A stretch of DNA of 64,000 nt from contig JBNZDD010013568.1 in the NCBI GenBank assembly GCA_050575255.1, positions 1,171,243-1,235,242 on the forward strand, in the 5' to 3' direction. A program made the translations under genes and the position numbers. Shown here piece after piece: positions 12,927-59,692 of the stretch. This stretch comes from Harriotta raleighana. Its lineage: Eukaryota. Numbering within the stretch: position 1 is the first letter of the stretch; each line of letters starts with the position of its first letter. The notes under the pieces are model-generated. The model did no database searches and had not been told where the DNA came from. It saw nothing but the letters and a program-made list of their open reading frames with translations.

Positions 12927-13287
12927 GGAGTCTGTAGTTCAGTGGTTAGAGCATTCGCCGATCTAGCGAGAGACCTTGGGTTCTATTCCCGGCAGGGTGA
13001 AATGTGGGCAAGTTTCCTTACTCCACACGCATCTGCTTACCTATCAGTAAGTAGGAATCCAGTAGTTAGCCGATTGGGGCATTGCTTTTCTGGGCATAAT
13101 AATCCCTCAAAAAGAAAAATTTGGATCGCTATATCCCCGACTGTTTGTGGGACATTGCTGTGAGCAATTGGTTGCCACATTTTGCACAAAAATACACAGT
13201 CAATTAACTTTACAGTATATTCTGTGAAGTACTTTGAGACGTCTAGAAGAGGTGAGAAGCCCTCTATCAAATGTAAGGATTGTTATT
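12927..13287 (+). mobile_element. SINE family A, long variant
   Basis: A box tagttcagtgg, degenerate B box gggttctattcc, an extra ~60 bp at about 13030-13095, Deu-like segment and L2 tail. Confidence 0.85.
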
Positions 13288-14184
13288 TAAAAGATTGGTG
13301 CGCATTGCGGGATTCATTTCAGCAAAACAATCCATTGCACAATACAAGTATTCTACACAACCATGTACCACGATTTTCCATTATCCACTTCTACCTCTTT
13401 CTCCCCACCTCCACCCAGAGTTAACTGCACACTATCCTTCCCACATGCCCTCAATACATACATGTTGACATTTTCTTTCTTCGTGTAACTTGGATCTGCA
13501 TCACAGGGAGTGTATCTATTTGATAGGGTACCATCAAAAATCAGAGCCACCGCCATTTTTTCGTGTGATATATCAGCCGCATTTCAGGGCAGAGCGATTC
13601 TTGGAGTTGAAATTCGGACAGCAGCCATGGAATTAACTGGTCAGCTGTACCCTACGTAACATTAAAACATCAATAGCCCATTGTACCCCAATAAAATAGA
13701 CAGGATTTAAAGTAGCTTTTCAATTTTCTCCGTATTCTCAGCGAGCTTTGATAGGTTACTGAGATCTTCAGAATGAAAACAAACTATTAGAACTTGGACT
13801 GTTGGGAGGGAGATGATGGAGGGGAAGAAAATGCAATTCAGGCAATCTCCAAGTTTCATACAATGGAAATAATGTGCAGAAACTATAATAATTCAAGGAG
13901 CACTCATCATTTTCTATAGGTTCCACTTTGTACTGGAGTTACAAATCTCTCCCCTGTTCTGAGAAGAAGTGTTCTAATAATAAAAGAATGAATCACTACC
14001 ACAGTACAATGCTTTTCAGTACTTAATACAGAATGAGCGAGAGGCACAGATTAAACCATATCTCTGACTCAGAGTCTTACAGCTCCCAGTAGAACTTGCT
14101 ATTTATTAATGTTGTAGCCAGCAAAGCAAAATAAAAAAAGCTTTATTTCAAATGTCTCATATTGCCAGTGCTCCTTGTGTTCAA

Positions 14185-14198: not shown

Positions 14199-16036
14199 CC
14201 TCAGTCTGAGCAGCTCCTCATACTGACCACACACACTGAAATCTCAATACACCACCGTGTGAAGAGGATTTCCTGCAATTTTGGCTACAGCTGTTAGCTA
14301 GAAAGCTGTGTGGGGTGGGGAGAGTAATCTACAGACTGTGTGTGTTAGTCTATATGCCTAACCACTTTGGGGGTTTATTTAATTGAAAATAATGGAAAAT
14401 AACAGCTGGCACTAGGCAAAATTCAGGTTTTAGAAAGGTACCTTGTTCCCCCTTCCCTGACACGCAATCCCTAACCGTTCCATCTTGTAGAATTGCTTTC
14501 AGACCACTTGAACGTATATTGGAGTACAATGCGATGAAACCAGTAGTCAGGCTCCTCAGGTCATTAGATGAAGGCAGTAAAAATGGCACTGGCTTGTTGG
14601 GAGCATTGGCACACTGTGGTACGTGCGCCTGTCGGGCCGATGGAGGAAAGCCCAGAGTGTAGAGCCGGCCACTTCTCACAGGGAGGCATTTAGGAGCCAA
14701 TTACACTGGGCGACTCTCACACAGCTCCTCACGGGCACAGTTGGCAGAGGTCTGTCTGAGAGTGCACCTGGTTGTCTACCCTTTCACGTAGCGAATGCTG
14801 TGTGATGCAGTCGTTAAACATTCCAAGACAAATAAGAATTGTTCTTTAGACAAGTCTCATGAGTCACCTGCTGGGCGCAGGCAAATTGCCAAAAAGAAAT
14901 TCTTCAAACACTTCCCACAGCCAACCAACACACAACAGTTCTACAAACAACTTGTGATATCAAAAGGCAAGTTTGTTTTTCCATTGTTATCCTTTTGCTG
15001 GGAAGATTCAATTTCCACTCAAGTACCGCCCTGAAAGGCTACGGATGTTTTAAATATTTACTCTTTATCAGTCTTGTAGTGAAGGCAAAACACTACCACA
15101 GAACTCACATTCAGGGTCACAAGAGAGCAGCAACATATGACTAGATTGGATCTAGAAAGCTGTCGGAATGCTTCACTCTGCAGCAAATGGAAAGCTGCAA
15201 ATCCCTCTGAACCTTAACCTTCTGCTGAAAGCCGAGCTCCCCTGAGACATGCTGAAAAGCTGTAACAATTCATGTTACTGTCTCCTCCAGCCCGGTTCAT
15301 ATATGATACAATAATATTTATTGGGGGAAAACAGCTTCCTTATTGATGACATTTTTTTTTCAGCACAAGTCTGTGCAGCTGACATCTGAACGGTGCCTAT
15401 TATGGGGAATGAAGTATGGTCTTAAATTATTCAAGGTGAACTCATCCATAACAAACACAAGGCCATGTCTAATCTGCTCCAGTAAGTGGCGCTACTGCAC
15501 CACAATACATCAAACAATCTCATCTTTCACTGGACCCGCTCAGATAGATTGTTATCTCTAACGTATCTCAGGTACTGAAGCTATTTCATTTTGTTCATCT
15601 TCAGCTCGAAGGAGAAGGTCGATAGAAACCGCACAAAACAATCCGACCAAAAGAATTCAAGAGGAAGCTTATCAAACCTGCAACCTTCACGTGGTTTTCC
15701 AAATCCAATCTAATAATGTGCAAGTCATTGAGTCCATTCAACACCGGACTGGGAACATTTTCTGGAACAAAATACAGCCCTATGAGGCAAACCGCTCTTT
15801 TCATAGAAGAGTCCACCAAGGCTGGCACCAAACTGACTCCAATTCTGTGAGGTGTAAGGTTGTTGGTTTATCTTAAATCTACTCTCCCCCCCCCCCCACT
15901 GACACTTTTGCTTCACTAAGTCCCGTTGAGGAGGCAGGCCGGCTACTTATATATAAGCGGTGCCCTGTGGACCTGCCTGTCTCATCGATGCAGAACATTG
16001 ACTCAGCTCTGCTCTCCTTTACCAGTCATGTCACCA

Positions 16037-19000
16037 TGGACCCAATTTGGCTGAACAAAACCCTCGCCATCTCCCCCAAATAGCACAACGGCTTTTACTA
16101 GAAATCCAAATGCGAAACCACAGCACATCACAATATCGCTTCATATAATGCAGTCTGCGGGAGCCGCAAAGCAGTAGAATTTGGGGAACTCAAGCACATA
16201 ATAGAAAGCCACCATCATCAGCTTGGAAGCCACTGGTGCTCAGCTGATGAGATGCAGTAATGGAAGTGTTGTAAACCTTACTGAAGAATGATGGCAACAA
16301 TAAGCAAGCAGAAAATTTGACATCACCCACCAGGAGTAAACCACTATAATCCTCCCTCTTATAACCATCAAAAAGCTTTAACAACAGAAAAGTGCAGTCA
16401 AGCTAAACAAATAAACAGCTTATGCGTGGGAGCAGGCTCCCTCCTGCTGGTCAGTACCAAAGCACCACATCGCTACATACAGAAAGCTGCCCTTTACGCA
16501 CAAAAAGAATCTTATGAGCAGCTTTACCTTTCCTAAATAAGCCGGTCGCCCTGTGACAACATGCAGCTGTTCATCAAATTAGTTACTGTTGTGAGTGCTG
16601 CTTAACCCTGACCCAAGTACTGCGGGATACGAACATAAGGTTCAAAGCCGGCTACAACTTGTGCCCGATTAAAACCTATTAATCTTAGCAGCTGCCGTAG
16701 AATGAAAGAAAAGGAGGGAGTTTCAAGGCAGTAACACAATCAGGGGTTCATATTGTGCCACCAACTGCTATAGCTAGCGTGTGCTCTGAACTCTTGACAC
16801 TGTGTTACTGACACGCTTGCCCCCTCTGCCAAATCGGACTGCTAATACCTCTCACCACCACCTCCAATCTACAGCAGCAAGTTCAAATAGATTTGCGATC
16901 GATTTTACAATCGTGACAGGTAGGTCTGACATCTCTGGCCATTGGCCCATGATTTGGGTTTGAATTCTGTACATTATTTTATTGGTCAAAGGATCAAAAT
17001 GTCATATGATGTACCTCAAAACTAACCAAGATTCATAGAATCTTACGGCACAGAAGGAGGCCATTCGGTCCGTCGCGTCTATGCCGACTCTTTAAAAAGA
17101 GCAATTTAATCCCACTCCTCAGATCTTTCCCCATAACTTCGCAAACCTGTCCTCCCCAAATAAATGTCTACCTCTCTTTTAAATCAGACAATCACAGACC
17201 ATGATTCAGCTCAAAACAATTACAGACCATGCACGATTGGGGAAACAAGTTGTTTGGCTGATGGCAGAGCTCAGGGTCACAGAATTTGTGTTCTTTTAAA
17301 ATATTTACGAGAAGCTGCATCCTCAAGTAAAGGTCGCACACACCAAGTGCCATGTGCTCTGCCACTGACAGTCAGATGTCAGTGTGTACCGTTGCTGTAG
17401 AGTCAATGTGACTTTTTCACACAAGTGTGAAATCCCAATCATTTATGCCATTTCCTTAATCTGTAACAACTGTGCATTCATGGGCATTTATTGCTGTTTA
17501 TAGCAGATTACAAATACATTTCTTTGCAATGAGACACGTTNTGGACCCAATTTGGCTGAACAAAACCCTCGCCATCTCCCCCAAATAGCACAACGGCTTT
17601 TACTAGAAATCCAAATGCGAAACCACAGCACATCACAATATCGCTTCATATAATGCAGTCTGCGGGAGCCGCAAAGCAGTAGAATTTGGGGAACTCAAGC
17701 ACATAATAGAAAGCCACCATCATCAGCTTGGAAGCCACTGGTGCTCAGCTGATGAGATGCAGTAATGGAAGTGTTGTAAACCTTACTGAAGAATGATGGC
17801 AACAATAAGCAAGCAGAAAATTTGACATCACCCACCAGGAGTAAACCACTATAATCCTCCCTCTTATAACCATCAAAAAGCTTTAACAACAGAAAAGTGC
17901 AGTCAAGCTAAACAAATAAACAGCTTATGCGTGGGAGCAGGCTCCCTCCTGCTGGTCAGTACCAAAGCACCACATCGCTACATACAGAAAGCTGCCCTTT
18001 ACGCACAAAAAGAATCTTATGAGCAGCTTTACCTTTCCTAAATAAGCCGGTCGCCCTGTGACAACATGCAGCTGTTCATCAAATTAGTTACTGTTGTGAG
18101 TGCTGCTTAACCCTGACCCAAGTACTGCGGGATACGAACATAAGGTTCAAAGCCGGCTACAACTTGTGCCCGATTAAAACCTATTAATCTTAGCAGCTGC
18201 CGTAGAATGAAAGAAAAGGAGGGAGTTTCAAGGCAGTAACACAATCAGGGGTTCATATTGTGCCACCAACTGCTATAGCTAGCGTGTGCTCTGAACTCTT
18301 GACACTGTGTTACTGACACGCTTGCCCCCTCTGCCAAATCGGACTGCTAATACCTCTCACCACCACCTCCAATCTACAGCAGCAATTTCAAATAGATTTG
18401 CGATCGATTTTACAATCGTGACAGGTAGGTCTGACATCTCTGGCCATTGGCCCATGATTTGGGTTTGAATTCTGTACATTATTTTATTGGTCAAAGGATC
18501 AAAATGTCATATGATGTACCTCAAAACTAACCAAGATTCATAGAATCTTACGGCACAGAAGGAGGCCATTCGGTCCGTCGCGTCTATGCCGACTCTTTAA
18601 AAAGAGCAATTTAATCCCACTCCTCAGATCTTTCCCCATAACTTCGCAAACCTGTCCTCCCCAAATAAATGTCTACCTCTCTTTTAAATCAGACAATCAC
18701 AGACCATGATTCAGCTCAAAACAATTACAGACCATGCACGATTGGGGAAACAAGTTGTTTGGCTGATGGCAGAGCTCAGGGTCACAGAATTTGTGTTCTT
18801 TTAAAATATTTACGAGAAGCTGCATCCTCAAGTAAAGGTCGCACACACCAAGTGCCATGTGCTCTGCCACTGACAGTCAGATGTCAGTGTGTACCGTTGC
18901 TGTAGAGTCAATGTGACTTTTTCACACAAGTGTGAAATCCCAATCATTTATGCCATTTCCTTAATCTGTAACAACTGTGCATTCATGGGCATTTATTGCT

Positions 19001-21194: not shown

Positions 21195-21424
21195 AACGCA
21201 AAAAAGTACAGATGCTGAAAATCTGAAACAAAAACAGAAATCGCTCGGAATACTCAGCAGGTCAGGCAGCATCTATGGAGAAAGGAAAGTGGGTCCATGA
21301 CACTTTGTTAGCACAAGGGAACTTCGTTCTGACGAAGTGTCTGAACCTGAAATATTGAATCACTCTCCTTTCTCCACAGATGCTTCCTGACCTTCTGAGC
21401 AATCCCTGGGGATTTCTGTTTTTT
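21195..21424. mobile_element. Palindromic hammerhead-core element (Penelope-like-derived, non-autonomous)
   Basis: Arms 'aaacagaaatcgc...caggtcaggcagcatctatggagaaagga' and 'tcctttctccacagatgcttcctgacc...atttctgtttt'; decayed core CTGACGA at 21329 and GAAA at 21349; central mini-palindrome acttcgt/acgaagt. Confidence 0.8.
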
Positions 21425-23388
21425 ATGCCAGACGGAGATTGGTTGGTCCAAACATATTTCCCTTCACCAGGAAAATTCTCACCTCATAAGAAGGGGACAT
21501 TGTCAGCACACTCCTTAAATCTCACAGAATCCTCCTGAGTCAGTTTTTGCTGTGTCGCCATGAAGACCACACTCATTCAGGATCAAGATCACCTAAATCA
21601 AATGGGATCTCCTGGGGTTTGAGCGTACCGCTGTCCATTACCAGCCCACGCAGAGTTTTTATTAGGAAACAGCAAGAGATGGGTATCAGGCGTTGATAGA
21701 GCCTTGTGCCAACCTCCCACGAGGCAGCTCAGGTCAACTGAGATGTCAAACTGTCACTCACAGCTACCAATGGAATATGCAACTCTAGCAATATTTATAA
21801 ATCCAAGACAAACATACATATGCAGCTGTAACTAACTGACAGTTGGGTTGGGTCTTAAACTAGCAGTTGGTGTTATACCAACTGATCTCTTTGTTTACAG
21901 ACATTATTACAGAGACCATAATCAGAATTAGATCTCTGGATGAGGATGGACAGTACTCCAGCATTTCTCTACCAACTGGATTTAGGGCAGAGAAGGAATT
22001 GAATTTTAAAAATTTACAATCACAGGAATTCATTAGATCTCGGGTTTCCTGGGATCCTGGAGTGCTATATAGGGACAGATTACAAGGTTGGGCCTCCAGA
22101 TGCCTTTTTTTCAATTCTTCTCCAAACTCCTGTGATTTTACTCAACATCAGATAGTAAAATGGAAACACACCCCAAAGGAAAGCATTCTGCCCACAGGAT
22201 TCACTATAAGACTCTACAATATAAAACTTTTATTTACTGTCCACACACTGAGTCAAAAGAAACAGTCGCTTATGAAAGTTTGAAAGGCTTCCAACATTCA
22301 GGAAGGTGTAATCCTCTAACATGAAACACACTATACAAATGTAAATTGTTGTTGTTGTAATTCTAGAGTGTTCAAAGGTGCAAAGTACACATTACTTCTG
22401 CTGTTTCATTAGATGAAACTTGGACAGATTAGACCCAGACGTCAGTTTGGCTGACAGAACAAGGGGTTATTAAAAATAAATTGAAGTTAGCTGACGTGGT
22501 TCTCAGAACTGCAACTATCTATGCAGTTTCTGCTTTGTATCTCACTGACACACAATCTAAGCCTGCATTAATCTTCTGGATGTTTGATTCAGGCTTTCTA
22601 TAACCTAAGATATTGCATGCAACAGCTATCATAAAACTAACAGGTCTGACATTATCAGGACTAACATGTAAATTACATTTTATTGCAACAATATATTTTT
22701 AAAAATCAGCATACTGCTTAGCAAGTGCACTGTAAAAGTGTGTCTCTCACACACAGATATTTAAGTTTAGAAACTACACTGACCAATATTGGGGAGTCAT
22801 TTCCTGGTTTGTTTATTTGAACATTAAACCGCTGAAGACAATCTCTCACAAAACAATTTCAACAAATTGAAGGGTAATATCTGGACATACACCACGACCA
22901 AACTAGTGACCTCATCACATCTGAGCAGCTTCAGAAAGATCCATTCAACCCTATTTTCCCAGTTTCCGGCACATGACAGATATGCACAGCCCCGCGATCC
23001 CGAGAGTACCTCAGCCAAACTCTAGGTATCTGAATAAGTGGCAACTGCAGCACAGTACCCAGGAGCTGTCACTCAGTAAGACTGACTTCCGAACAGATTG
23101 TCATAGTATCACACATTTTTGATTATTGCAAGAATAAATCCTGATTCTTAACTGAAGAAATATTGCAATGGCAAGCAAAATGCCTGGACTGACCTTCAAA
23201 GAACTCTTACACAAATTCAAAAAGAAGTCAAGGATGAAGGTCAGGTTAGTAGACATTTCAATATAGATCAGTGGAAAAACAGGATATGCTGAAGGACATT
23301 TTTTCTTTTCTGCCATTAACAATACCACTGGGACTCATTGAAAATGAAGGCAAGTAATACTAGTTACAGAGAACTCTAACCTGGCTCC

Positions 23389-30402: not shown

Positions 30403-30977
30403 CAGGCTTCTGTCCTTATCTAAACCAAACAATCACTAGAACAGCAGCTGATAAGCTGCTATGGTATGGCAGTTATACCAATTAAATGTGGCAATAATAG
30501 AAGCCTGTGAGAATTTATGAGCTTTACAATCTTACCTCTGCCCTGAATGTTTTGATCCAACCATAAAGCCAGTGCTTACCTGTACAAGCTACTCCCATTC
30601 ACATGGCACTGGGCCCAAGTCCTAACTCATTATCTATTAACTACTGCTTCACCTATTCTATTTATTAGTTGATCTTCCTATTTTAATAATTCAATTTAAA
30701 ATAAACTTACCTTTACCTTCAAATGGCCTTTTGCACACTATTTCTTTAGCTTCCAATTGTTATAGTAGTATTCAAGCGGTGCAGTGATCACCCCAATTAC
30801 ATGTAAAAACTCAACAATAATTAAACAGCCAACTCCAGTAATCGCCTTGTGACCAACCTTCTTTCCTTCGCATGATGTTGACAATTAAAACAAGCTCAGT
30901 TCAATATGTTTGTTTTGTAACTTAAGAATCCAAGTCAATCTTGTCAAATGCATCAATGCTTTTCTGAGGATAGGGTG

Positions 30978-31493
30978 CCTCGCCTTTGTCACCTCTCGGC
31001 TGGACTATTGCAATGCCCTCCTCTCCGGTCTCCCCTCCTCCACAATCCACAGAGTCCAGCTTATCCAGAACTCTGCCGCTCGCGTTCTCACCCGCACCAA
31101 ACTTCGCTCCCCCATTACCCCAGTCCTTGCCAGACTTCACTGGCTCCCTATCCCAGAGAGGATAGATTTTAATCCCTCATCTTCAAATCCCTCCAATCCT
31201 CTGCACCCCCCTCCTCTCTCTTCAAACCGGTACCTGTTGCCTTTGCTCCACTGGGTCTGGCTTCCTCCGCTCCACCCATTATGCCCCGAGGCTCTGGAAT
31301 TTCCTTCCTCACTTCCTCCGCCTCGCCCCCTCTTTTCCCAGGTTCAGGTCCCAGCTGAAGACCTTTCTCTTCAACCGCACCTTTGGTCACCTTTCTACCC
31401 CGGCCCCTGGCTCGGTCCCGGGATCCACTATTGTGAAGCGCTCTGAGACTCTGTCTGGTGTGGAGGGCGCTATATAAATCCAAGTTGTTGTTG
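30978..31493 (+). mobile_element. L2 LINE 3' end with ORF2 C-terminus
   Basis: [18 protein letters not shown]...[34 protein letters not shown], then frameshifts; tail 'gggcgctatataaatccaag' followed by (ttg)n. Confidence 0.95.
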
Positions 31494-31802: not shown

Positions 31803-31964
31803 TAACGTTTCGGGTCAGAAGTACCTAGAACTGACGAAGGGTCTTTGACCCGAAATGTTGACTCCATTTTCTTTTCTCCATAGATGCTGCCTGACCTGCT
31901 GAGTGTTCCTGGCAATTTCTGTTTTTGTTTCAGATTTCCAGCATCTGCAGTATGTTGCGTTTTT
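31803..31964 (+). mobile_element. Palindromic hammerhead-core element (right arm plus remnant of left arm)
   Basis: CTGACGA(31831)-A-GGGTC ttt GACCC-GAAA(31852)-TGTT, then the arm 'tctccatagatgctgcctgacctgctgag...ttgcgttttt'. Confidence 0.85.
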
Positions 31965-40353: not shown

Positions 40354-40704
40354 TGTGGAGCTCCTGTGGCTCAGTGGTTAGAGCACTCGCCTTACATGCC
40401 TTACAAGCATGAGGCCTGTGTTCGAATCCAGGCAGATCAGGGCGAAACCTTGGGCAAGTTTCCTTACTCCACATGCCTAATAATAATCCCTCCAAAAAAA
40501 AAAAACTACAATAATAAAAAAAATTGGTCATTTCAATCCATGACTGTTTGTGGGACGCTGCTGTGCGCAATTGGCTGCCGCGTTTCGCCCACAAATATAC
40601 AGTCAATTCACTTTACAGTATACTCTGTGAAGCGCTTTGGGACGTTGATAAGATGTGAAAAGCGCTATATCAAATGCAAGGATTATTATTATTATTATTA
40701 TTAT
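40354..40704 (+). mobile_element. Full-length tRNA-SINE family A (young copy)
   Basis: A box TGGCTCAGTGG at 40367-40377, B box GTTCGAATCC at 40420-40429, CORE-like 'ccttgggcaagtt', Deu-like 'gtgggacgctgctgtgcgcaattggctgccgcgtttc', L2-type tail and (tta)n; CpGs retained. Confidence 0.95.
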
Positions 40705-42389: not shown

Positions 42390-42760
42390 GCTGATGACTC
42401 AGTTGGCTGTCACTGACTGGTGTGAAATTGTCAGTAAAAGTATATTAAGGATTGGGTGATGAATGGAGAGGCATCATCAATGTGGAATTTGAACACAGGA
42501 GCGGGAACAGAGTACTAGGGAACTCAGAGCTGATGGATAAAGAGTCAGAAAATGAGCCATCAACCACAGCTCAGAGTCATTCAAGAGGAAACAAGTTAAC
42601 TGTAATTATAACTTTGATGACAGATCCCGTAATAGGAACTGAAGGCTTTGGAAACATCCAAGGGAATGACAAAAGCATTAAACTATTCAAGAGGAGAGTT
42701 CCAGAAGTCCATAACAAACAAGATCAATGGAGTGAATGGTCATGCCAAAAAGCACTCTAG
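42390..42760 (-). mobile_element. Degraded L2-like RT fragment
   Basis: Minus strand 'gagttccctagtactctgttcccgctcctgtgttc' resembles GVPQGSVLGPxLF. Confidence 0.45.
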
Positions 42761-44850: not shown

Positions 44851-45194
44851 CTTGGCGTCCGCTGTGAAGATATTCGCAATCTCCACTTTGGCTGATTGCG
44901 GAAGCATGACAGCAATTGTACAGATGGAGTAAATGTGAGATGAGAAAAGTAATTTGTGATTGTTTTCAGTAATACAACAGCAAGTGAAGAGGAGTAGGAC
45001 TGGAGGTTTTGGAGAAACTGTCACATGGCTTAAACCAAAATTATGTTCATGTCCTTTTTTTTTACTCAATTCACATAATCTGTCAGTTACTTGATGGTTA
45101 ATCTCTGTCTTCTCCCCCTCCTCTCAATCAACTTTGCCTCTCCAAAGCATGACTGTCTATCCCACTCTGATTAGTTAGCACATTAACCATCAAA

Positions 45195-45376
45195 ATAATA
45201 ATAAATTGGTTATTTCAATCCACGACTGTTTGTGAGACGCTGCTGTGCATAATTGACTGCCGAGTTTCGCCCACAAATACATAATCAATTCACTTTACAG
45301 TATATTCTGTGAAGCACTCTGAGTCATCTAAAAAATATGAAAAGCACTTTATCAAATGCAAGGATTATTATTATTC
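45195..45376 (+). mobile_element. SINE family A, 3' half
   Basis: Matches 40510-40700. Confidence 0.85.
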
Positions 45377-50236: not shown

Positions 50237-50576
50237 ATAATAATAATAATAATAATAATCCTTGCATTTGATATAGCGCTTTTCACATCTTATCAACGTC
50301 CCAAAGCGCTTCACAGAATATACTGTAAAGTGAATTGACTGTATATTTATGGGTACAATGCGGCAGCCAATTGCGCACAGCAGCGTCGTCCCCCCCACAA
50401 ACAGTCATGGATTGAAATGACCAATTTTATTATTGTTGTATTTTTGGAGGGATTATTATTAGGCATGTGGAGTAAGGAAACTTGCCCAAGGTTTCGCCCT
50501 GATCTGCCGGGATTCGAACACAGGTCTCATGCTTATAAGACAAGTGCTCTAACCACTAAGCCACAGGAGCTCCACA
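50237..50576 (-). mobile_element. Full-length tRNA-SINE family A (young copy)
   Basis: Near-identical reverse complement of 40354-40704. Confidence 0.95.
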
Positions 50577-50922: not shown

Positions 50923-52307
50923 CAAATTCAATCTGTATTTTTGGTTGTTGTGGGAGGAAACCTAGCCTAGATAGGTGGAGTAAATTCATTTTGAAGGAGT
51001 GTATTGCTGACCTTATAGCCAGAGGAACAGGCTGAGATTTTTACATCATTAGTATTTATGTTCAGAGAATGCTTGACTTCCGGCTGAGCTGCGACGTGTT
51101 AATCTAATTTTGCTACAACTGAGGTTCAGAATGTCAAGTTCAAGATTCAGCTTCCAGTTAAAACAGATTTTAATAAATGACAGATCTCAGGATTCTTCTC
51201 TCCCTCATTCCCCCCATCCCCCAGCCTCCCCCCCCACCCCAAAAAAAAATATCTTGATTTCCAACCAGCTAATGTTAGCATTATGGTAGCGTTAATGGTA
51301 ACTACTGGTAACCTCTACAGAATCGTTTCGCAAGGATAAAATGGAACTTTGTGAACTTGAAAGGAAAAATAAAAGTATGGTCTTGACATTCTTCATCTTT
51401 ACCCCTTCACAAGGCAGCACAAATCTGCTACAAGTCTGGCAGCTCGCCAACAAAAGGTTTCCAGGAAACCAGCCAACAACAACTTTGGCAAAAATGTCCT
51501 ATTTCCAGAGTCGCATTTAAATACTTTTCTTTGGTCAACAAAAAAGGAGTTATTTTAATTGATTTGTTCTTTCAAGCTTTCACATTTGTTGAGAACACTT
51601 CAATTCAGTTTCTAACCCAGCCTTCAGCAGAAAAACAAACCGAGCCTTTCACATATCTAACATCTGATGGTAACCGCTTCATTCAAGCGTATTGCTATAT
51701 GCCAAGGAATAAGATACTGCTGAGGCTTATTGAACTTTTTGCCTTTAGAATGAGCTGTTTTCAAAACATACTTTCAAGCATCCCAACTGAGAGCACCAAC
51801 AATGGCCTTCAGCAAATCCAAAGCTTCTCTCTGTACCATTCCCACAAAGTGAAAAGCTTCCATTCAGCCCATTTGTGATGGTTCAATTTTTGTCCATCCA
51901 CTCAACTAAACCACAACAAAGCTATCTTCCCAGGGCAAAAATAGGTGCAAATGAAATGATTTAATATCAAGGTAAATCACATGAAAACTTACACACACAT
52001 CCAAATACTCACAACACAAAATAATCGTCTTAGCAAACCATAACAGTTCTAAATTCAAATTTTAGATAATGGCTGAATTCCAACTATTGCTGGCATTGCC
52101 CAGACAAGGTGAACTGGCAATAAATGAAAAGGATGATCAAGTCTCTGAATGCAGACAGTAAAAAGTGAGATATAAAAAAATCAGTAGGGTAATCATCACA
52201 TATAAATTAAGTGAGCTGAAATGAACCTTAACCTGGATAATTGAGCTTTTAAACCAACTTGGCAGCCAGATAAGATTATCACAGCTGAATATATTGAGCA
52301 ACTCTTC

Positions 52308-52392
52308 ATGGAAAGTATGTGTGTGTCAAGACAGGATCAGGCTCAACGATTACCCTCTTCAAGATCAAACGGCCTGCTGGTTGCCACTCAGC
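52308..52392 (+). mobile_element. LF-SINE-like central fragment
   Basis: 'tggaaagtatgtgtgtg..gacaggatcaggctc...tcaaacggcctgc' matches the middle of LF-SINE as recalled. Confidence 0.55.
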
Positions 52393-52415
52393 AACTGAGC
52401 TCAAACAAGGAGAAT

Positions 52416-52570
52416 AAACGAAAGGCAAAATACTGCAGATCCTGGGAATCTGGTATAATCACAGAAGTCACTAAGAACATGCATCAGCTCAGGCGGTATC
52501 TATGAAGAGAGGAAAATTAGTTAACTGATGAAAGGTCATTGACCTGAAATGTTAACTTATTTTATATCTC
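52416..52570 (+). mobile_element. Palindromic hammerhead-core element (old copy)
   Basis: Left arm 'gcaaaatactgcagatcctgggaatctg...', then CTGATGA(52525)-A-AGGTC att GACCT-GAAA-TGTT. Confidence 0.75.
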
Positions 52571-53894
52571 ATGTTACTCTACTGCCAACATGAATTGCTG
52601 TGTTCAAGAGAGACGAGGAGAAGGAAAGTAGTTAGACATTAGCCCTAGACTTGTGTTCAGCCTTAAACATTATCTATTTCTGTGTCTTTAGACAGAGCTG
52701 TATTAGCACTCCATATCTCTTGAAAAAGTTGATATCCATCTATCCTTCAGAACAGGTCAGGCAATGTCAATTGAGTCTTTCCTTTTTCAAGGAGGTGCTT
52801 TCCAATTCGTAACAGGGAGGTTCCTACAAATCAATACAGAAGTCACGAGACTCCTCATATCTGTAAGAGCACACTGCTGTGTTTCATCACCTCTGGGACA
52901 CATCCTGGCCTAATGGGATATTGCCATACTCATGTTAAGAGGTTAGTAGTTTCCTCAACCACTATCTAAAGTGGAAATCCTTGAGTCTGTTGCACTTATA
53001 AAACAGTATTCACTCCACAATTAAGTGAATGCAACAAGATTTGAAGTCATAATTAATACATAAGCTGAGGTTGTGCTCTTTATTTTCATTTTCAGGACTG
53101 AGTATAACATACATGACCCTGGTACCAGAGCCCCAATATAAGAATGTGTCCAGGATGTACACTTCAAATTCAATTACATTCTTAGAATGTAAGAATCTGG
53201 TGGGCACTGGTGATCAGTTCCAGATGTTGACTGATGTATGATATATAACGTAAGAGGAATGTGAACATAGGCTCCTATGAATCTCATGCACAGAATGTCC
53301 TGCTGCACTTTCATAACTTTCCTCAGATGAGGCACTGGTGTTAAATATAGAAATAAATCAATATCAAAGAACCAGACTGGAGACTCAACATTTCAGTTTA
53401 CAATGTCAGTCTAATTAAGGAACAGTTTGACAGGGGACTGATTGGAGGATATGTCTCAAGCAATTTGTTGGCAACATCTGTGGGTATACATAAAATATGT
53501 GTTTAGTTATACAAAGAGAAAACTACAGTGAGGTGCAACAACCTCAAAGTAAAATGATTCAATTATTTGTCACTGTTTATGTTGATCTGATTGGGTTGTG
53601 TAACAGAGAACACAGGCAGAGTACGGAATGCGAGAATTGACTCGTTGAAATGTTTTCTGGAATGAAAATACAGCAATACTCAGCATACCAATCAATGTTC
53701 TTTACATTTTGCTAGTTTCAGATCATCAAACACAATTTTAACACTTTGATCACTGAATGTCCTGTGTAGGCTGTGTGTTCTGCTTTAGATTCATTTCTCA
53801 ATATGAAAAGGCTGAGCTCCAGAGAAATACATAAAATCAAACAATTTCTTGAAAAAATGCATCTTGTGGCACTAAAATTAAAAAAGTCTATCAG

Positions 53895-54200
53895 ACACGG
53901 TGGAGCACTGACCAGGAATTGCAGGTTCTGTGTCTGGTTTGTGCGGAGCTAACTGAATTCAAACAGGGACACTGGGAGAGGGAGGGAAGGTTTAAAAATA
54001 AGACAACATTCCTTCTCTGTATCATTGTCCCAACAGCCCTGATGGAACTTGTGTGGGTGTTGGATGAGAATAGAATAAGGCCTGATTCTGATGGCCTTCC
54101 ATGGCTGAACAGTCGCCAGCACTCACGGTCTGGGCTCACATGTACACTGCCACCTAAACAAGGTACCGAGGGCAGGGGGTGGCCAAACTCTATGGAAGGA
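53895..54200 (+). mobile_element. LF-SINE-like, near full-length
   Basis: 'gaccaggaa..caggttc..tctggtttgtgcggagctaactga', 'gcactcacggtctgggctcacatg' and 'aggtaccgagggc' occur in LF-SINE order. Confidence 0.7.
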
Positions 54201-54721
54201 ACTTTTCGAGAAATAATCTTAGTTGGTATCCTGACCCCAGTAGCTTAAAAAATTTCATATCAGGGTATCCCAGGGTAATAACTTTTTGCGTCCTGATTTT
54301 TTCTCCTCTTCTAACAAATTTTGGTAAATGGCATCTGCACAACCGAATCAGTGCAACAACCACCAATGATGGCCAGTCCCAACAACAACAACAAAATTAC
54401 TAATGAGGACCAGCAGGAAATAAAACCACAGTTGTAATTTGAAACTGGCTCATAAATACTACTGTAGTCTTTCACAGGCTGAGATCAGCAGAGCAAAAGT
54501 TGTATAAACTTACTGACTCTTTTAAAATCGGGGTACTCACAGGTCTGGAGAGGGTGTTAAGGGATTACAGATTGGTTTACATTGCACTCAGTGTTTTTTA
54601 ACAGACAATAGCACTGCCCAGATACATTTACATCACACAATTCCCAAGAGTTAACAGCTTAACCTAACAATCTTCACACAGCGGTGTTTGTCTTCTACAG
54701 CAAGAGCATTAGTTCACAAGG

Positions 54722-54932
54722 ACTGCAGAGAGCAGAAAATAAAAACAGAAATGGCTGGGAACACTCAGCAGGTCAGGCAGCATCTATAGAGAGAAAGGAA
54801 AAATAAGTCGACGTTTCGGGTCCACCACCCTTCGTCAGAACCCTCTCTCCATAGATGCTGCCTGACCCGCTGAGTATTCCCAGCGATTTCTGTTGTTTCA
54901 GATTTCTAGCGTCTGCAGTATTTTGCGTTTTT
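54722..54932. mobile_element. Palindromic hammerhead-core element with 51-bp arms
   Basis: Arms 54744-54794 and 54844-54894 are inverted repeats with 4 differences in 51 nt; 49-nt loop. Confidence 0.9.
54805..54843 (-). ncRNA. Minimal type I hammerhead ribozyme motif (short stem III variant)
   Basis: GGGUU-CUGACGA-A-GGGU-GGUGG-ACCC-GAAA-CG-UC/GACUU: complete core, 4-bp stem II, 5-bp stem I (with G-U pairs), palindromic ACGU in place of stem III; activity untested. Confidence 0.7.
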
Positions 54933-55389
54933 GAGTGAGCAGAAAGTGTCTGTTTCCATACAAGTGACAATAAATTGTAAAGTAGCAGTCATTTTTCCTG
55001 AATTCTCCACTGAGAGCATTTAATCTCCCAAGGCTCCGGATACAGAAGTGCCCACATGTGGGAATCACAGCTTTTGTAATTGAATCCTTCATTGGAGGTC
55101 AGCAGCAGATCCTGGTTTTATAGGAAGCTGTGGGTTATTGGGGGAGGCTCTCTGCTTACATTGATTTCATTTGAATTATGATCACTTCAAAAAATGTGTG
55201 AATGGCGGTGGTGACTTCAAGTTCAAAACATTATTGCAAACAGAAATTTGTTATCTTCACCATTGAAGACTCTGGTATAAAATACATCTGAAACCATAGC
55301 CCAATTAGTTGACCAAGATTTATTCAGGCGTGAAGTACAATTTCTTCATCTACCAAGAAGAGGATTCCCTGAGTTACAAGGAAACTTCT

Positions 55390-55403
55390 CCAGTAGGGGG
55401 CAC
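55390..55403 (+). promoter_or_regulatory. Candidate CTCF site
   Basis: CCAGTAGGGGGCAC is an exact match to CCASYAGRKGGCRS; motif match only. Confidence 0.5.
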
Positions 55404-56012
55404 TTTTGCATCACACAAGCAAACACAACCCCTGTTCCAATGCATTTCATTCCCACCCAGCACACAGCTGATGCACTCCCCTCATATTTCACTAGAAGTG
55501 TTTAATATGTGTTGTCAAACACTCGCTGTGCCAGTAGTACAAGCCCAAAGTGAGAGGTTGCAGTGCCTTCTGGGATTTTCTAGTTTGATACAAAGGAACT
55601 GAGGCCCATCCATCAATCCCCCCTCACCCCCATCTCCTTTTGCTCTCAGATTTCTTTGCAGAATGGTGAAGAATTGATCCCCTGAACAAAGGCTGAACAA
55701 TTTCCACCCAGGCATACTTGATCAAGGTTATGGTTTTATATTGGGAAACACGTCCACACCTTCCCCCATCCTGGCCCTATGTGGGACCTTGCTGTGCACA
55801 TTACTACATGTGGCAGCAATTACTATATAAAGTGCTGTGAGATGTTTAAACATTGAAGGCAGAATAAAAATACAAGTTATTTTAATTATTTTAGGTTTGT
55901 TTGGCTAGGAGGATCTGGAGGACAGCATCTTCAACAATGCAGCACACACTCAGCTCAACATTTGAATTAGTCATATTTAAACAAAGCATATGCAGGTAAG
56001 GTTTTAGATAGG

Positions 56013-56095
56013 AATAATAATAATCTTTACTTTGAATGTAGAGCCTTTCAGTTTGGGAGGACGTCTCAAAGCGCTTCACAGGATATAACTGTAAT
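56013..56095 (-). mobile_element. SINE/L2 tail; an older + strand Deu-like fragment lies at about 55778-55880
   Basis: 'aataataatctttac...gggaggacgtctcaaagcgcttcacagg'. Confidence 0.65.
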
Positions 56096-56620
56096 GTGGT
56101 GTGTGTGTGTAGCTAAAATATATTTCTCCAAGCTTATCCGATTCATTTAAAATTTATTATAATTGGGGTTTCAAGGTATTATTTAAATTTGACAAGTTCA
56201 TTCCTAGCGAAAGAGAAGCTTCACTTATACAATGAAAGAAAATGCTCTCCTGAAATTTTTACCAGCTTGTTAACACTGCAACACGAACATTGTGCACTGG
56301 ACTTCCATTCCTCGGTGTTTAACAATAACAGGGGTGATACCACAAAGCTTACAAGATGGAAAACACGAATAGGATTGCAAAGTATTAAGCAAATCTTCAT
56401 GTAGTATTAAATCAGATTAATAACCTGAATTCAACCTGAAGAACAACCTCAAAGCTCCTTATTCGTTCAAAAGGTCAGGTGCTGTGTATTAAAGTTCGCT
56501 ACACATATTTACACATTTTCCAGATAATTCTCAGCTCCACCAGGAACACAAAAGATTTATACAATGCAATAGATAATCCATGTACTGTACAAGTATAGAA
56601 AGTATACCAAGTAAATAGCT

Positions 56621-56726
56621 AGGGTTCTGACAAAGGGTCGTGCACCCGAAACGTTGACTCACTTTCCTCTCTCTATCGATGCTGCCTGACCTGAGTGTTC
56701 GCAGCGATTTCTGTTTTTGTTTCAGT
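56621..56726 (+). mobile_element. Hammerhead-core element (right arm only)
   Basis: GGGTT-CTGACAA(G8>A)-A-GGGT cgtgc ACCC-GAAA-CGTT-GACTC, then the arm 'gatgctgcctgacctgagtg...atttctgtttttgtttcag'. Confidence 0.85.
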
Positions 56727-59692
56727 TTGTGAGTGTGTGGCAGTATTAGATCAGCCGATTTCAGCAAGGCATCCTCATTAGTTTCACATGGTCACACTAA
56801 AGCATCGCCCGCCCAATGCAATGGCCCAATGCTTGGTTGCAAAGACAAATGAGTTCAGAATGTTGTGAAATTTCAAATTGTTTCTCCCTCTCTCTGCTGC
56901 AATGCAAAATCACAATTGTCATTTTACTGCGATTCCAATTTTATTTCAGCGGGATATTTTAGATGGTAAATACTGATAAAAAGGATAATGTTTTATAATA
57001 ACTGCATATGTTCACCCAATTGAAGACCACACACAATTATTAATGGTGACTACACAATGCAGCAAAGAAAGATTCCATTTATTCTGGAAAACAAGTTATC
57101 CATCGAGCGTTATCCATCGACAGGAACCAGTAATTTTGATTTCTGCGTGTTGGAAATATTGATCTCACGGCTAGCAAAATTACTAAGCACATCACATAAC
57201 TAATTGCTGGTTTGGGAGTATATTACACCGCTGCAACACAATCATCAGGTTCAGATAATGTCAACCTACAGGAGCAAAGCTCAAGTCATTTATAAAGTCA
57301 TTTGAACCATGGGACTGAGTGACAAACCCACAACAAACAACCTCACACTGACCATATTACTGTATTATCTCATTGTAGTGCAAACTGTGTGCAATGACCA
57401 GGAGCCTAAATCCATCAGAATTCTCGCACAGATCATACAGCACAATCCAGATTTATACAAGACTAGGACTCTCTACATGGCAAACTGCCATAGAAACTTG
57501 TCTGCCACTCTACACTATATTTGTCTAGTTTGACAGATTGTGTTAATCCTAGATATCCCTGGATGAATAAATGGAATTAGTATTACAGTTAAAATTTGTA
57601 TTGTTGACATCAGGTAGTCAGTTAGACAAGTCACTGAACTTCTAGGTTAGTAATGCAACTGTAAAAACAGAACAGTGACTGATACAGAAAGACTAATTTT
57701 TCAGAGGTTTCAGAAGTTCTCCTGACAGAACAGTCAGTTTGGCCTGTGCCATAGCTCCTTTGCATCACGTAAAATTTCACCCATGCAATTACAATGTCAG
57801 TTATTGCTATTTCGGCTACAACGCATGGAGAGCCCCCAAAATAAATCACCAATTAGTAAAACAACAATTAATCAATCAGCTCTTTGTGACACTATGGCAG
57901 GAAAACAGTACATTTACTTTAAGTAGTTAATGTAGTAAAATTAATCTATACCGTTTTACATACACATATTAAATATTCAGTTCAATTTAATTCTAATTAC
58001 TTTTCCTTGTACAGGCCTGTCAAGGCAAGCCTATTAATAATTTCACTGACAAGAGGGTCAATAAAATAAATCAAAATGGGCTCCAAAAGTGCTTACTGTA
58101 ATTGACACATCGTTCCTCAAAAATCTAATCTGAGAACTGGTCAATATCAGATCCAAGCATAGAACATGTCATAGAGTGCGTTTAAAAGGATTTCTCCTAA
58201 GAAATCCTAGGATTCAGTAAATCACCATTTTATGCTATCTTGTGATTACAGTTTCCTGCAGTTAAAATGTAAGAGGTGTAAAGTACATAATGGAGTGGGT
58301 GCCCTGCCTGATGGTATCCACACCACTGAGGCAACACAAAAACTGAGTACTGTACATGGAAACTCGGAAATGGTTTCAAATGGATGCTGAATTGTAACAT
58401 TACTGGACTGTTACTCCACACAAGCAATGAGTTAAAAGGTACAACCTGCACTGAAAGGCTGATTTCAGCAAGCCAATGTCAGGGTCAAAAACACTAGTGG
58501 GTATCATCAGAGGCAACAGAGATGAAGAATGCTTCTACACAGATGGAAAGGAACTCGCTTGCATAACTGCGCTTCTCCAACATACAAACTTTTGAAGTGG
58601 TCCAAGCTGAAGACAAAGTGACGCAGATTGCTTGAGTCCGGTGTGGGCTTGAAGTATTTTTTTATCTCAGTTTGTGTGGCGAAGAAATACCCTGGACAAG
58701 ACAGCACAATCTCATGCTAGCAGTCCTTCTGTGCTGCTGCTATCGGGATATATGTAATGGCAGACAATGCAGAGGATTGTATTATCTTTGTACAACACAC
58801 TGCCTATAAACAAGGTCTGTTTACAGAAGGTGGAAAGGCATAGCCACATGTCCTCAGTTGTCATGGTTTCGAGAGCCCAGACATTTGGGGACAAGGCCCA
58901 TGTTTCTTTTTGTCTATTTTATATTGCTATCAGTAGAATTACCATGTGCCACAAAGTTATGACACCCAGCTCCTTCCCTTTTATAGCTCCCATAAGATTT
59001 ACGGGGAGTTCCACCTGCAGATAAAATGCCATAAAAATCTACTGGTTTTAAATGATGCAGAGTTATTGCTCCACAACCAGAATAAAAGCAATTTAACAAG
59101 TCTATATTTCTTAAAGGAGAATCTACACTTCACGAGTAGCAAAAGATAAGAGAATATTCTTCCCCAAGCCTCGATAGCATTATATTGTTCAGACCTGAAC
59201 AAAAGCCCAATTAACTTTCAAAGTTAAATGTTGATGAATATATTTAAAACTGAAATGTTAGCAGATGTACTGCATCAGTCTACATTCCACTGTCACAAAC
59301 GTCTCCAAACAGCACGGAACTCAGTGAGAATGAAAAATGTGACAACCTCCTTGTCTGGCACCCTTTTTCATCGAGAAACGGAGTGATTTTGCACCACGTG
59401 TAAAACCTGTGTGAAAATATTTTTTTTTAACAAGGTGCCCTAAAATTATAAAGTTATTAAATTCATAATTATTAAATGCTTTTCGCTGATGGTAAGTTTC
59501 ACAATTAAGAGCAAAGTGCATAATGTTACACAGGCTCATCATACGGATCTATGCAATTGGCAACTGTTTGTTGCGGCAAAATATAGACATTTTAGTTTCC
59601 ACTGTATTCGATGAAGTGCTGAAACATGTTTAAAAAATGCAATAAGGCAGTGAATGAAATGCAAGCTTTATTATTATTCTTAAAATTATAAA

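Follow-up and report, generated by a model that had tools for sequence, protein, structure and literature searches.

A hammerhead motif enclosed in the loop of a long hairpin raises the question of what kind of unit carries it: a self-cleaving element that is copied as a hairpin, a ribozyme at work in a host transcript, or a fragment of something larger. We examined such a hairpin in a 64-kb window (the whole stretch of DNA that was analysed, to which all coordinates refer). The 195-bp unit at 54739-54933 is very probably a head-to-head pair of short copies of the 3' end of an endonuclease-bearing Penelope-like element (PLE). It was likely inactive from the moment of insertion and has decayed since then.

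The hairpin loop holds a minimal type-I hammerhead motif

The hammerhead lies on the minus strand in a 49-nt loop between inverted arms of 51 nt (54744-54794 and 54844-54894). The arms differ at 4 of 51 positions, three of which form G-U pairs on the minus strand while the fourth is a C-C/G-G mismatch. These dimensions, and the three G-U pairs among four differences, had been given in an earlier note and came out the same on recomputation. Its claim that every core base is present on the minus strand, with a GUC triplet and the predicted cut given in Table 1, agrees with our position-by-position map (C3 = 54838, A9 = 54832, extra A = 54831, G12 = 54817, C17 = 54810; stem II formed by 54830-54827 and 54821-54818). 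The motif contains the core segments C3-A9, G12-A15.1 and U16.1-H17 together with stems I and II, as a minimal type-I hammerhead does. The earlier reading of stem I holds in part: GUU does come from the hammerhead-bearing arm, and the two G's before it are part of the opposite arm. Intact elements of the family read CCCCAG-TTCTGA at the hammerhead start.

The assignment to the PLE class of minimal type-I hammerheads, with an extra base after A9 and a palindromic stem III remnant, is borne out by the traits described in the available text of PMC4209133. Shared with that class are type I topology, a base between A9 and 10.1, the G10.1-C11.1 pair, a palindromic 15.2-16.2 and a short stem I; the motifs recorded there are mostly single and dispersed, with close opposite-strand pairs also noted. 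By comparison, the present family has GUU and a 5-bp stem II and the copy at 54739-54933 has GUC and 4 bp, all known here from sequence alone.

Chance is excluded as an explanation for the motif, since a tight family pattern gave 509 exact genome matches versus 0 for the reversed control. A looser hammerhead pattern brought the genome-wide count of core motifs to at least 1,425, and the arm pattern matched 1,094 times (reversed control 0 in both cases). An Rfam search of 52000-58000 at E<=10 gave no match to the hammerhead models; it returned hairpin-shaped miRNA models only, all under their gathering scores. Such sub-threshold matches are generic to hairpins.

Table 1. Features of the insertion and other family copies in the window.
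Feature	Coordinates	Strand	Remarks
Whole insertion, read as a head-to-head pair of 5'-truncated PLE 3' ends	54739..54933	.	195 bp; mapped on a natural long family copy
Left target-site duplication, AGAGAGCAGAAA	54727..54738	+	11/12 identical to the right one
Right target-site duplication, AGTGAGCAGAAA	54934..54945	+	Partner of 54727..54738
Tail-less arm, family positions -1 to about +101	54739..54841	-	Starts at the hammerhead's first base
Tail-bearing arm, family position +41 to end	54842..54933	+	Truncation falls short of the hammerhead
PLE tail, 34 nt	54900..54933	+	On the tail-bearing arm only
Minimal type-I hammerhead motif	54805..54841	-	Core intact; predicted cut between 54810 and 54809; GUC (family GUU); fifth pair of stem II broken
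Head-to-head pair, same PLE family	21195..21424	+	Hammerhead decayed
Single family copy with hammerhead and tail	31831..31964	+	
Older, diverged family copy	52421..52563	+	Inverted arm and hammerhead remnant
Single family copy	56621..56728	+	G8 to A

The hairpin is part of a larger insertion

The element had been placed at 54744-54894. The hairpin there is real, and the unit proved larger, extending over 54739-54933 with a one-sided tail between target-site duplications (Table 1). We found an inverted, 5'-truncated neighbour copy, a one-sided tail in the 30-40 bp range and a short target-site duplication, here 12 bp with one mismatch. The hairpin loop is the stretch over which the tail-less arm extends further 5' than the tail-bearing arm. 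Five family copies were found in the window, with the hammerhead on the minus strand at 54739-54933 only and on the plus strand in the other four. No direct repeat of the hammerhead unit was found beside 54739-54933, and the locus is a single inverted pair. Its fold junction occurs once in the 1.1-Gb genome; the hairpin therefore likely arose during insertion, which speaks against a retrozyme that replicates.

The available text of PMC3846280 and PMC8557442 describes complex insertions of endonuclease-positive PLEs with an inverted pLTR, a one-sided tail and duplications of 8-10 bp. The layout of 54739-54933 matches these insertions (adjacent inverted 5'-truncated pLTR, optional 30-40 bp tail, short target-site duplication), the difference being that both of its copies are truncated to about 100 nt, with no coding sequence left. 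The layout is thus already published and the locus itself is ordinary. Its weight is small; the family statistics below bear on the open question of how PLE inverted copies and one-sided tails originate.

The parent element carries endonuclease-like and RT frames

Long copies of the family reveal, going upstream of the hammerhead, a pyrimidine-rich tract ending in CCCCAG, an endonuclease-like frame and then RT frames. At locus L064, RT and GIY-YIG-like frames interrupted by stops and shifts lie upstream of the unit, and two of the frames carry C-x2-C-x2-C in the RT-EN linker. A CX2-5CxxC motif in this linker marks the Neptune/Nematis clades, according to the accessible part of PMC8557442. With the pLTR layout described below, the parent is an endonuclease-positive PLE whose linker is of the Neptune/Nematis type.

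The endonuclease frame of the family aligns with the homologue P0096 (E=1e-15, pairwise), in which Pfam puts GIY-YIG above the cut-off and RVT_1 just below it; both P0096 and a second homologue, P0117, carry RVT_1 and GIY-YIG. The family's own frames fall under the Pfam cut-offs (RVT_1 E=0.016 and 0.0023; GIY-YIG without a direct match), so the RT/GIY-YIG domain call leans on the homologues. The best protein relatives of the family RT come from sharks and rays, so the host may be a cartilaginous fish. A 2,393-aa frame at L100 was discarded as merely a run of N.

The hammerhead-arm-tail unit stands downstream of the frame in L064-L094 and upstream of it in L255 and L248, which is a pLTR layout, and the reading frame appears to begin downstream of the tail. 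In the Poseidon element of Anolis carolinensis (PAc), as described in the available part of PMC11167929, the hammerhead likewise lies about 100-135 nt upstream of two tail-defining end points, where insertions end. PAc differs in that its frame begins inside the hammerhead, while the family described here has the Neptune/Nematis-type cysteine motif in its RT-EN linker. The hammerhead at 54805-54841 is likely the ribozyme of the parent pLTR, carried in the 54739-54933 copy as a passive passenger; in the parent RNA it may act as a dimer with the help of protein.

Of nine long loci, seven contained the unit twice, in each case head to head with one tail and with kilobases between the ends, so that the design is common to long and short pairs. 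Head-to-head pairs 2.3-4 kb long, each with a single tail and remnants of RT and endonuclease, were seen at L064 (G000:C13268:127400-131050), L137, L138, L139, L140 and L143. An apparent tandem pLTR pair on C9829 is really a segmental duplication.

Paired copies mostly have a single tail and tend to share sequence marks

A 181-nt query against the 1.1-Gb genome gave 4,264 candidates, 40 of which were scored. In a set of 86 distinct pairs, the one at 54739-54933 included, obtained after removal of 18 duplicate loci and non-random in that 29 loci were picked for likeness to the 54739-54933 hairpin, one tail was present in 82, none in 4 and two in 0; with independent arms, some 20 pairs should have had two tails. 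Short pairs with a gap <=60 nt numbered 63, and their junctions differ from copy to copy. In a tally of 63 pairs, four rows of which stood for a place already listed, target-site duplications scoring >=10 were seen in 26, compared with 0% of 315 shuffled pairings. An inverted partner lay within 650 nt of only 22/86 arm-selected copies. Back-to-back hammerheads on opposite strands, with both arms reaching the hammerhead start, were also observed (G000:C13216:91078-91149, C13419:55087-55161, L054, L129, L169).

The two arms of an insertion also resemble each other. The subfamily mark at +52 was A/A in 56 insertions, G/G in 15 and A/G in 3; minor variants were common to both arms at 3.2%, compared with 1.3+-0.2% in random pairings; and arm-to-arm differences averaged 10.5% within insertions versus 14.1% for random pairs. 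These shared marks fit one template used twice, and equally fold-back self-priming or later conversion. The G-U bias toward the hammerhead strand to which the earlier note had drawn attention does not extend to the family (51 vs 45 in 28 hairpins, p=0.61).

How such a pair might arise is suggested by the anole PLE, whose protein cuts and extends both strands, with two internal start sites that define the tail, and which inserts without need for hammerhead cleavage, as the accessible text of PMC11167929 reports. By analogy with this in vitro study of another PLE clade, we infer two-strand priming at 54739-54933. The element's protein would cut the two DNA strands at points about 12 bp from each other and so prime two cDNAs, one from the tail end and the other about 34 nt further in. 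One of them would run to the hammerhead's first base, probably the 5' end of the RNA, and the other would stop at +41, after which the two would be joined at their truncated ends.

The same PLE identity could be reached by another route, put forward by Arkhipova and colleagues (available portions of PMC3846280 and PMC8557442), in which one cDNA or an antisense template folds back and primes itself and the tail results from endonuclease resolution of the intermediate. Conditional on the PLE identity, we consider this route possible rather than probable. The arms of one insertion share subfamily marks, as a copy of a copy would, but one RNA used twice accounts for the shared marks equally well. 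Against the fold-back route, either arm can extend further 5' (the tail-less arm in 37 pairs, the tail-bearing arm in 15, equal in 8), and the arms of long pairs both extend a great distance upstream, leaving kilobases between the pLTR ends.

The 5' ends cluster at the first base of the hammerhead

To locate 5' ends, 90 loci were chosen on the arm pattern and 86 used, after removal of three duplicates and one contig edge; positions were taken from local alignments and may be off by a few bases. The 5' end fell at the hammerhead's first base (-4..+3) in 31/86 copies and around the cut site (+28..+35) in 6/86. The idea that the hammerhead cut sets the 5' ends was rejected, as exactly +31 was seen in 2/86 only. 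L255, which continues into the frame, likewise starts at +3. A smaller cluster at +22..+24, the 3' foot of stem II, comprised 8/86 copies and may reflect RT pausing or an alignment effect at CpG.

The motif TTAAAA lies about 30 nt upstream of the pile-up of 5' ends and CCAGTTC spans the pile-up point, the two resembling the TATA and initiator consensus. The site also resembles a splice acceptor. In D. virilis an intron ends at helix I (PMC4209133) and the promoter is TATA-less (PMC2377424), as far as the available text of these papers describes. A cap-derived extra G at the 5' ends was not significant (10/21, p=0.07), and visual inspection of the listed upstream sequences revealed no common spliced first exon ahead of the stubs.

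With 0/86 two-tail pairs, shared arm marks, and 31/86 versus 6/86 ends within 8 nt of the hammerhead start and the cut site, respectively, the statistics fit an uncut RNA as template, as in vitro. We offer a full model tentatively, giving it somewhat short of even credence. The short stubs would be complete run-off cDNAs, rather than random truncations, of an RNA whose 5' end is the first base of the hammerhead; two internal start sites would give products of ~100 nt and ~135 nt; and every fold-back insertion would employ each site exactly once, with a different site for either DNA strand and a single uncut RNA as template. If this run-off model is true, the thousands of stubs document the PLE insertion reaction as it happens in vivo. 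A literature search covering few subscription papers returned no paper on this PLE family or its 5'-end pile-up; supplementary tables of hammerhead-bearing PLEs may list the family.

The hairpin is very probably not copied as a unit

The earlier note had suggested that the motif may belong to a self-cleaving, retrozyme-like non-autonomous element. An independent retrozyme-like or MITE-like palindrome that is transcribed as a hairpin, cleaves itself and is copied as a unit is a reading that we regard as very improbable. Short hairpin forms are indeed abundant, with the 63 pairs described above, and animal non-LTR retrozymes, which are argued to derive from PLE pLTRs, resemble the present unit in being non-coding, PLE-related and equipped with a type-I hammerhead (bioRxiv 10.64898/2026.07.22.740005, available part). 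Copying as a unit is largely refuted by the single occurrence of the 54739-54933 junction in 1.1 Gb and by junctions that vary among the short pairs, and the cut site shows no enrichment of 5' ends. There is also no tandem array, the defining trait in the available part of the same report: retrozymes are tandem units each with a hammerhead, whereas 54739-54933 is a one-off inverted pair. For genome scans this carries a caution, in that a PLE stub is what usually lies behind a hammerhead within a long hairpin in genomes of this kind.

Core bases of genomic copies decay at background rates, and the hairpin is predicted to disfavour stem I

The family triplet is GUU, with U in 41/41 copies and GUU in 127/130 other copies; the GUC at 54739-54933 is a rare variant of it. 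Stem II in the family comprises 5 bp with a 3-nt loop, and G at 10.5, the state of the 54739-54933 copy, was found in 1/86 copies.

Sequence decay was assessed in 42 copies chosen without regard to the hammerhead. Core changes affected G8 in 10/39 and G12 in 12/42 of them. Outside CpG sites, 11/367 core positions (3.0%) had changed, compared with 31/814 (3.8%) just downstream; at CpG sites the figures were 27% in the core and 29% in stem II. The core was kept in 15/42 copies, and the core with four stem pairs in 6/42. Genomic core bases thus decay at background rates, although dead genomic copies cannot reveal selection in the active lineage. That the 54739-54933 copy keeps every core base, like only 15/42 others, counts against its being a dead passenger. 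Double changes at the stem II pair 10.2-11.2 were in excess (21 vs 10.3 expected; odds ratio 2.0, p=0.007; counts 1,425, 132, 111 and 21), with Watson-Crick pairing regained in 14 of the 21. Selection acting on the stem in source elements may be the cause; mixed copy ages together with transition bias could give the same result.

Folding energies, which leave out tertiary contacts, gave -109.8 kcal/mol for the full hairpin, with a stem I pair probability of 0.04-0.11; a fold with stems I and II lay 7.5 kcal/mol above the minimum. In an isolated 40-mer, the GUC makes it possible for core G5-G8 to pair with the strand of the cut site (-12.4 vs -8.2). In a dimer co-fold the energy model, in which tertiary terms are absent, does not favour the hammerhead dimer, and the modelled structure is without stem I, so that we give this result no weight. 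Self-cleavage of the 54739-54933 copy appears doubtful: of the five family copies found in the window it alone has the hammerhead on the minus strand, and the hairpin disfavours stem I.

GUC is usually the best-cleaved hammerhead triplet. A domesticated ribozyme or long RNA hairpin that functions in a host transcript, which the intact core with GUC and the stability of the hairpin might suggest, is nonetheless the least credible reading and scarcely to be entertained, given arms that differ at 4/51 sites, near the family mean of 10.5%, the energetic cost of forming stems I and II together, the competing G5-G8 pairing allowed by GUC and the other family copies found in the window, none of which offers a partner on the same strand.

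The surrounding window

The earlier note had raised a possible sense orientation of the hammerhead within a host pre-mRNA. No host gene was found among the 44/69 frames >=85 aa that were scanned against Pfam, the single sub-threshold match being to NeuB (E=0.0035). Non-repetitive protein-like frames at 21864-22280, 42449-42757 and 14393-14659, all on the plus strand and without a Pfam match, could hold host exons. The frames at 30889-31443 and 5928-6254 resemble the C-terminal part of L2/CR1-type LINE proteins; a Pfam scan of these two gave no match. Tandem duplications with a spacing of about 1.5 kb occur at 16037 / 17542 and 27262 / 28833, with the listed 300-nt copies 100% identical, and are either recent or assembly artefacts. 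A second, very abundant short repeat family, SINE-like in appearance, is present on both strands (for example at 40394-40704, 50237-50545, 13106-13290 and 45191-45375).
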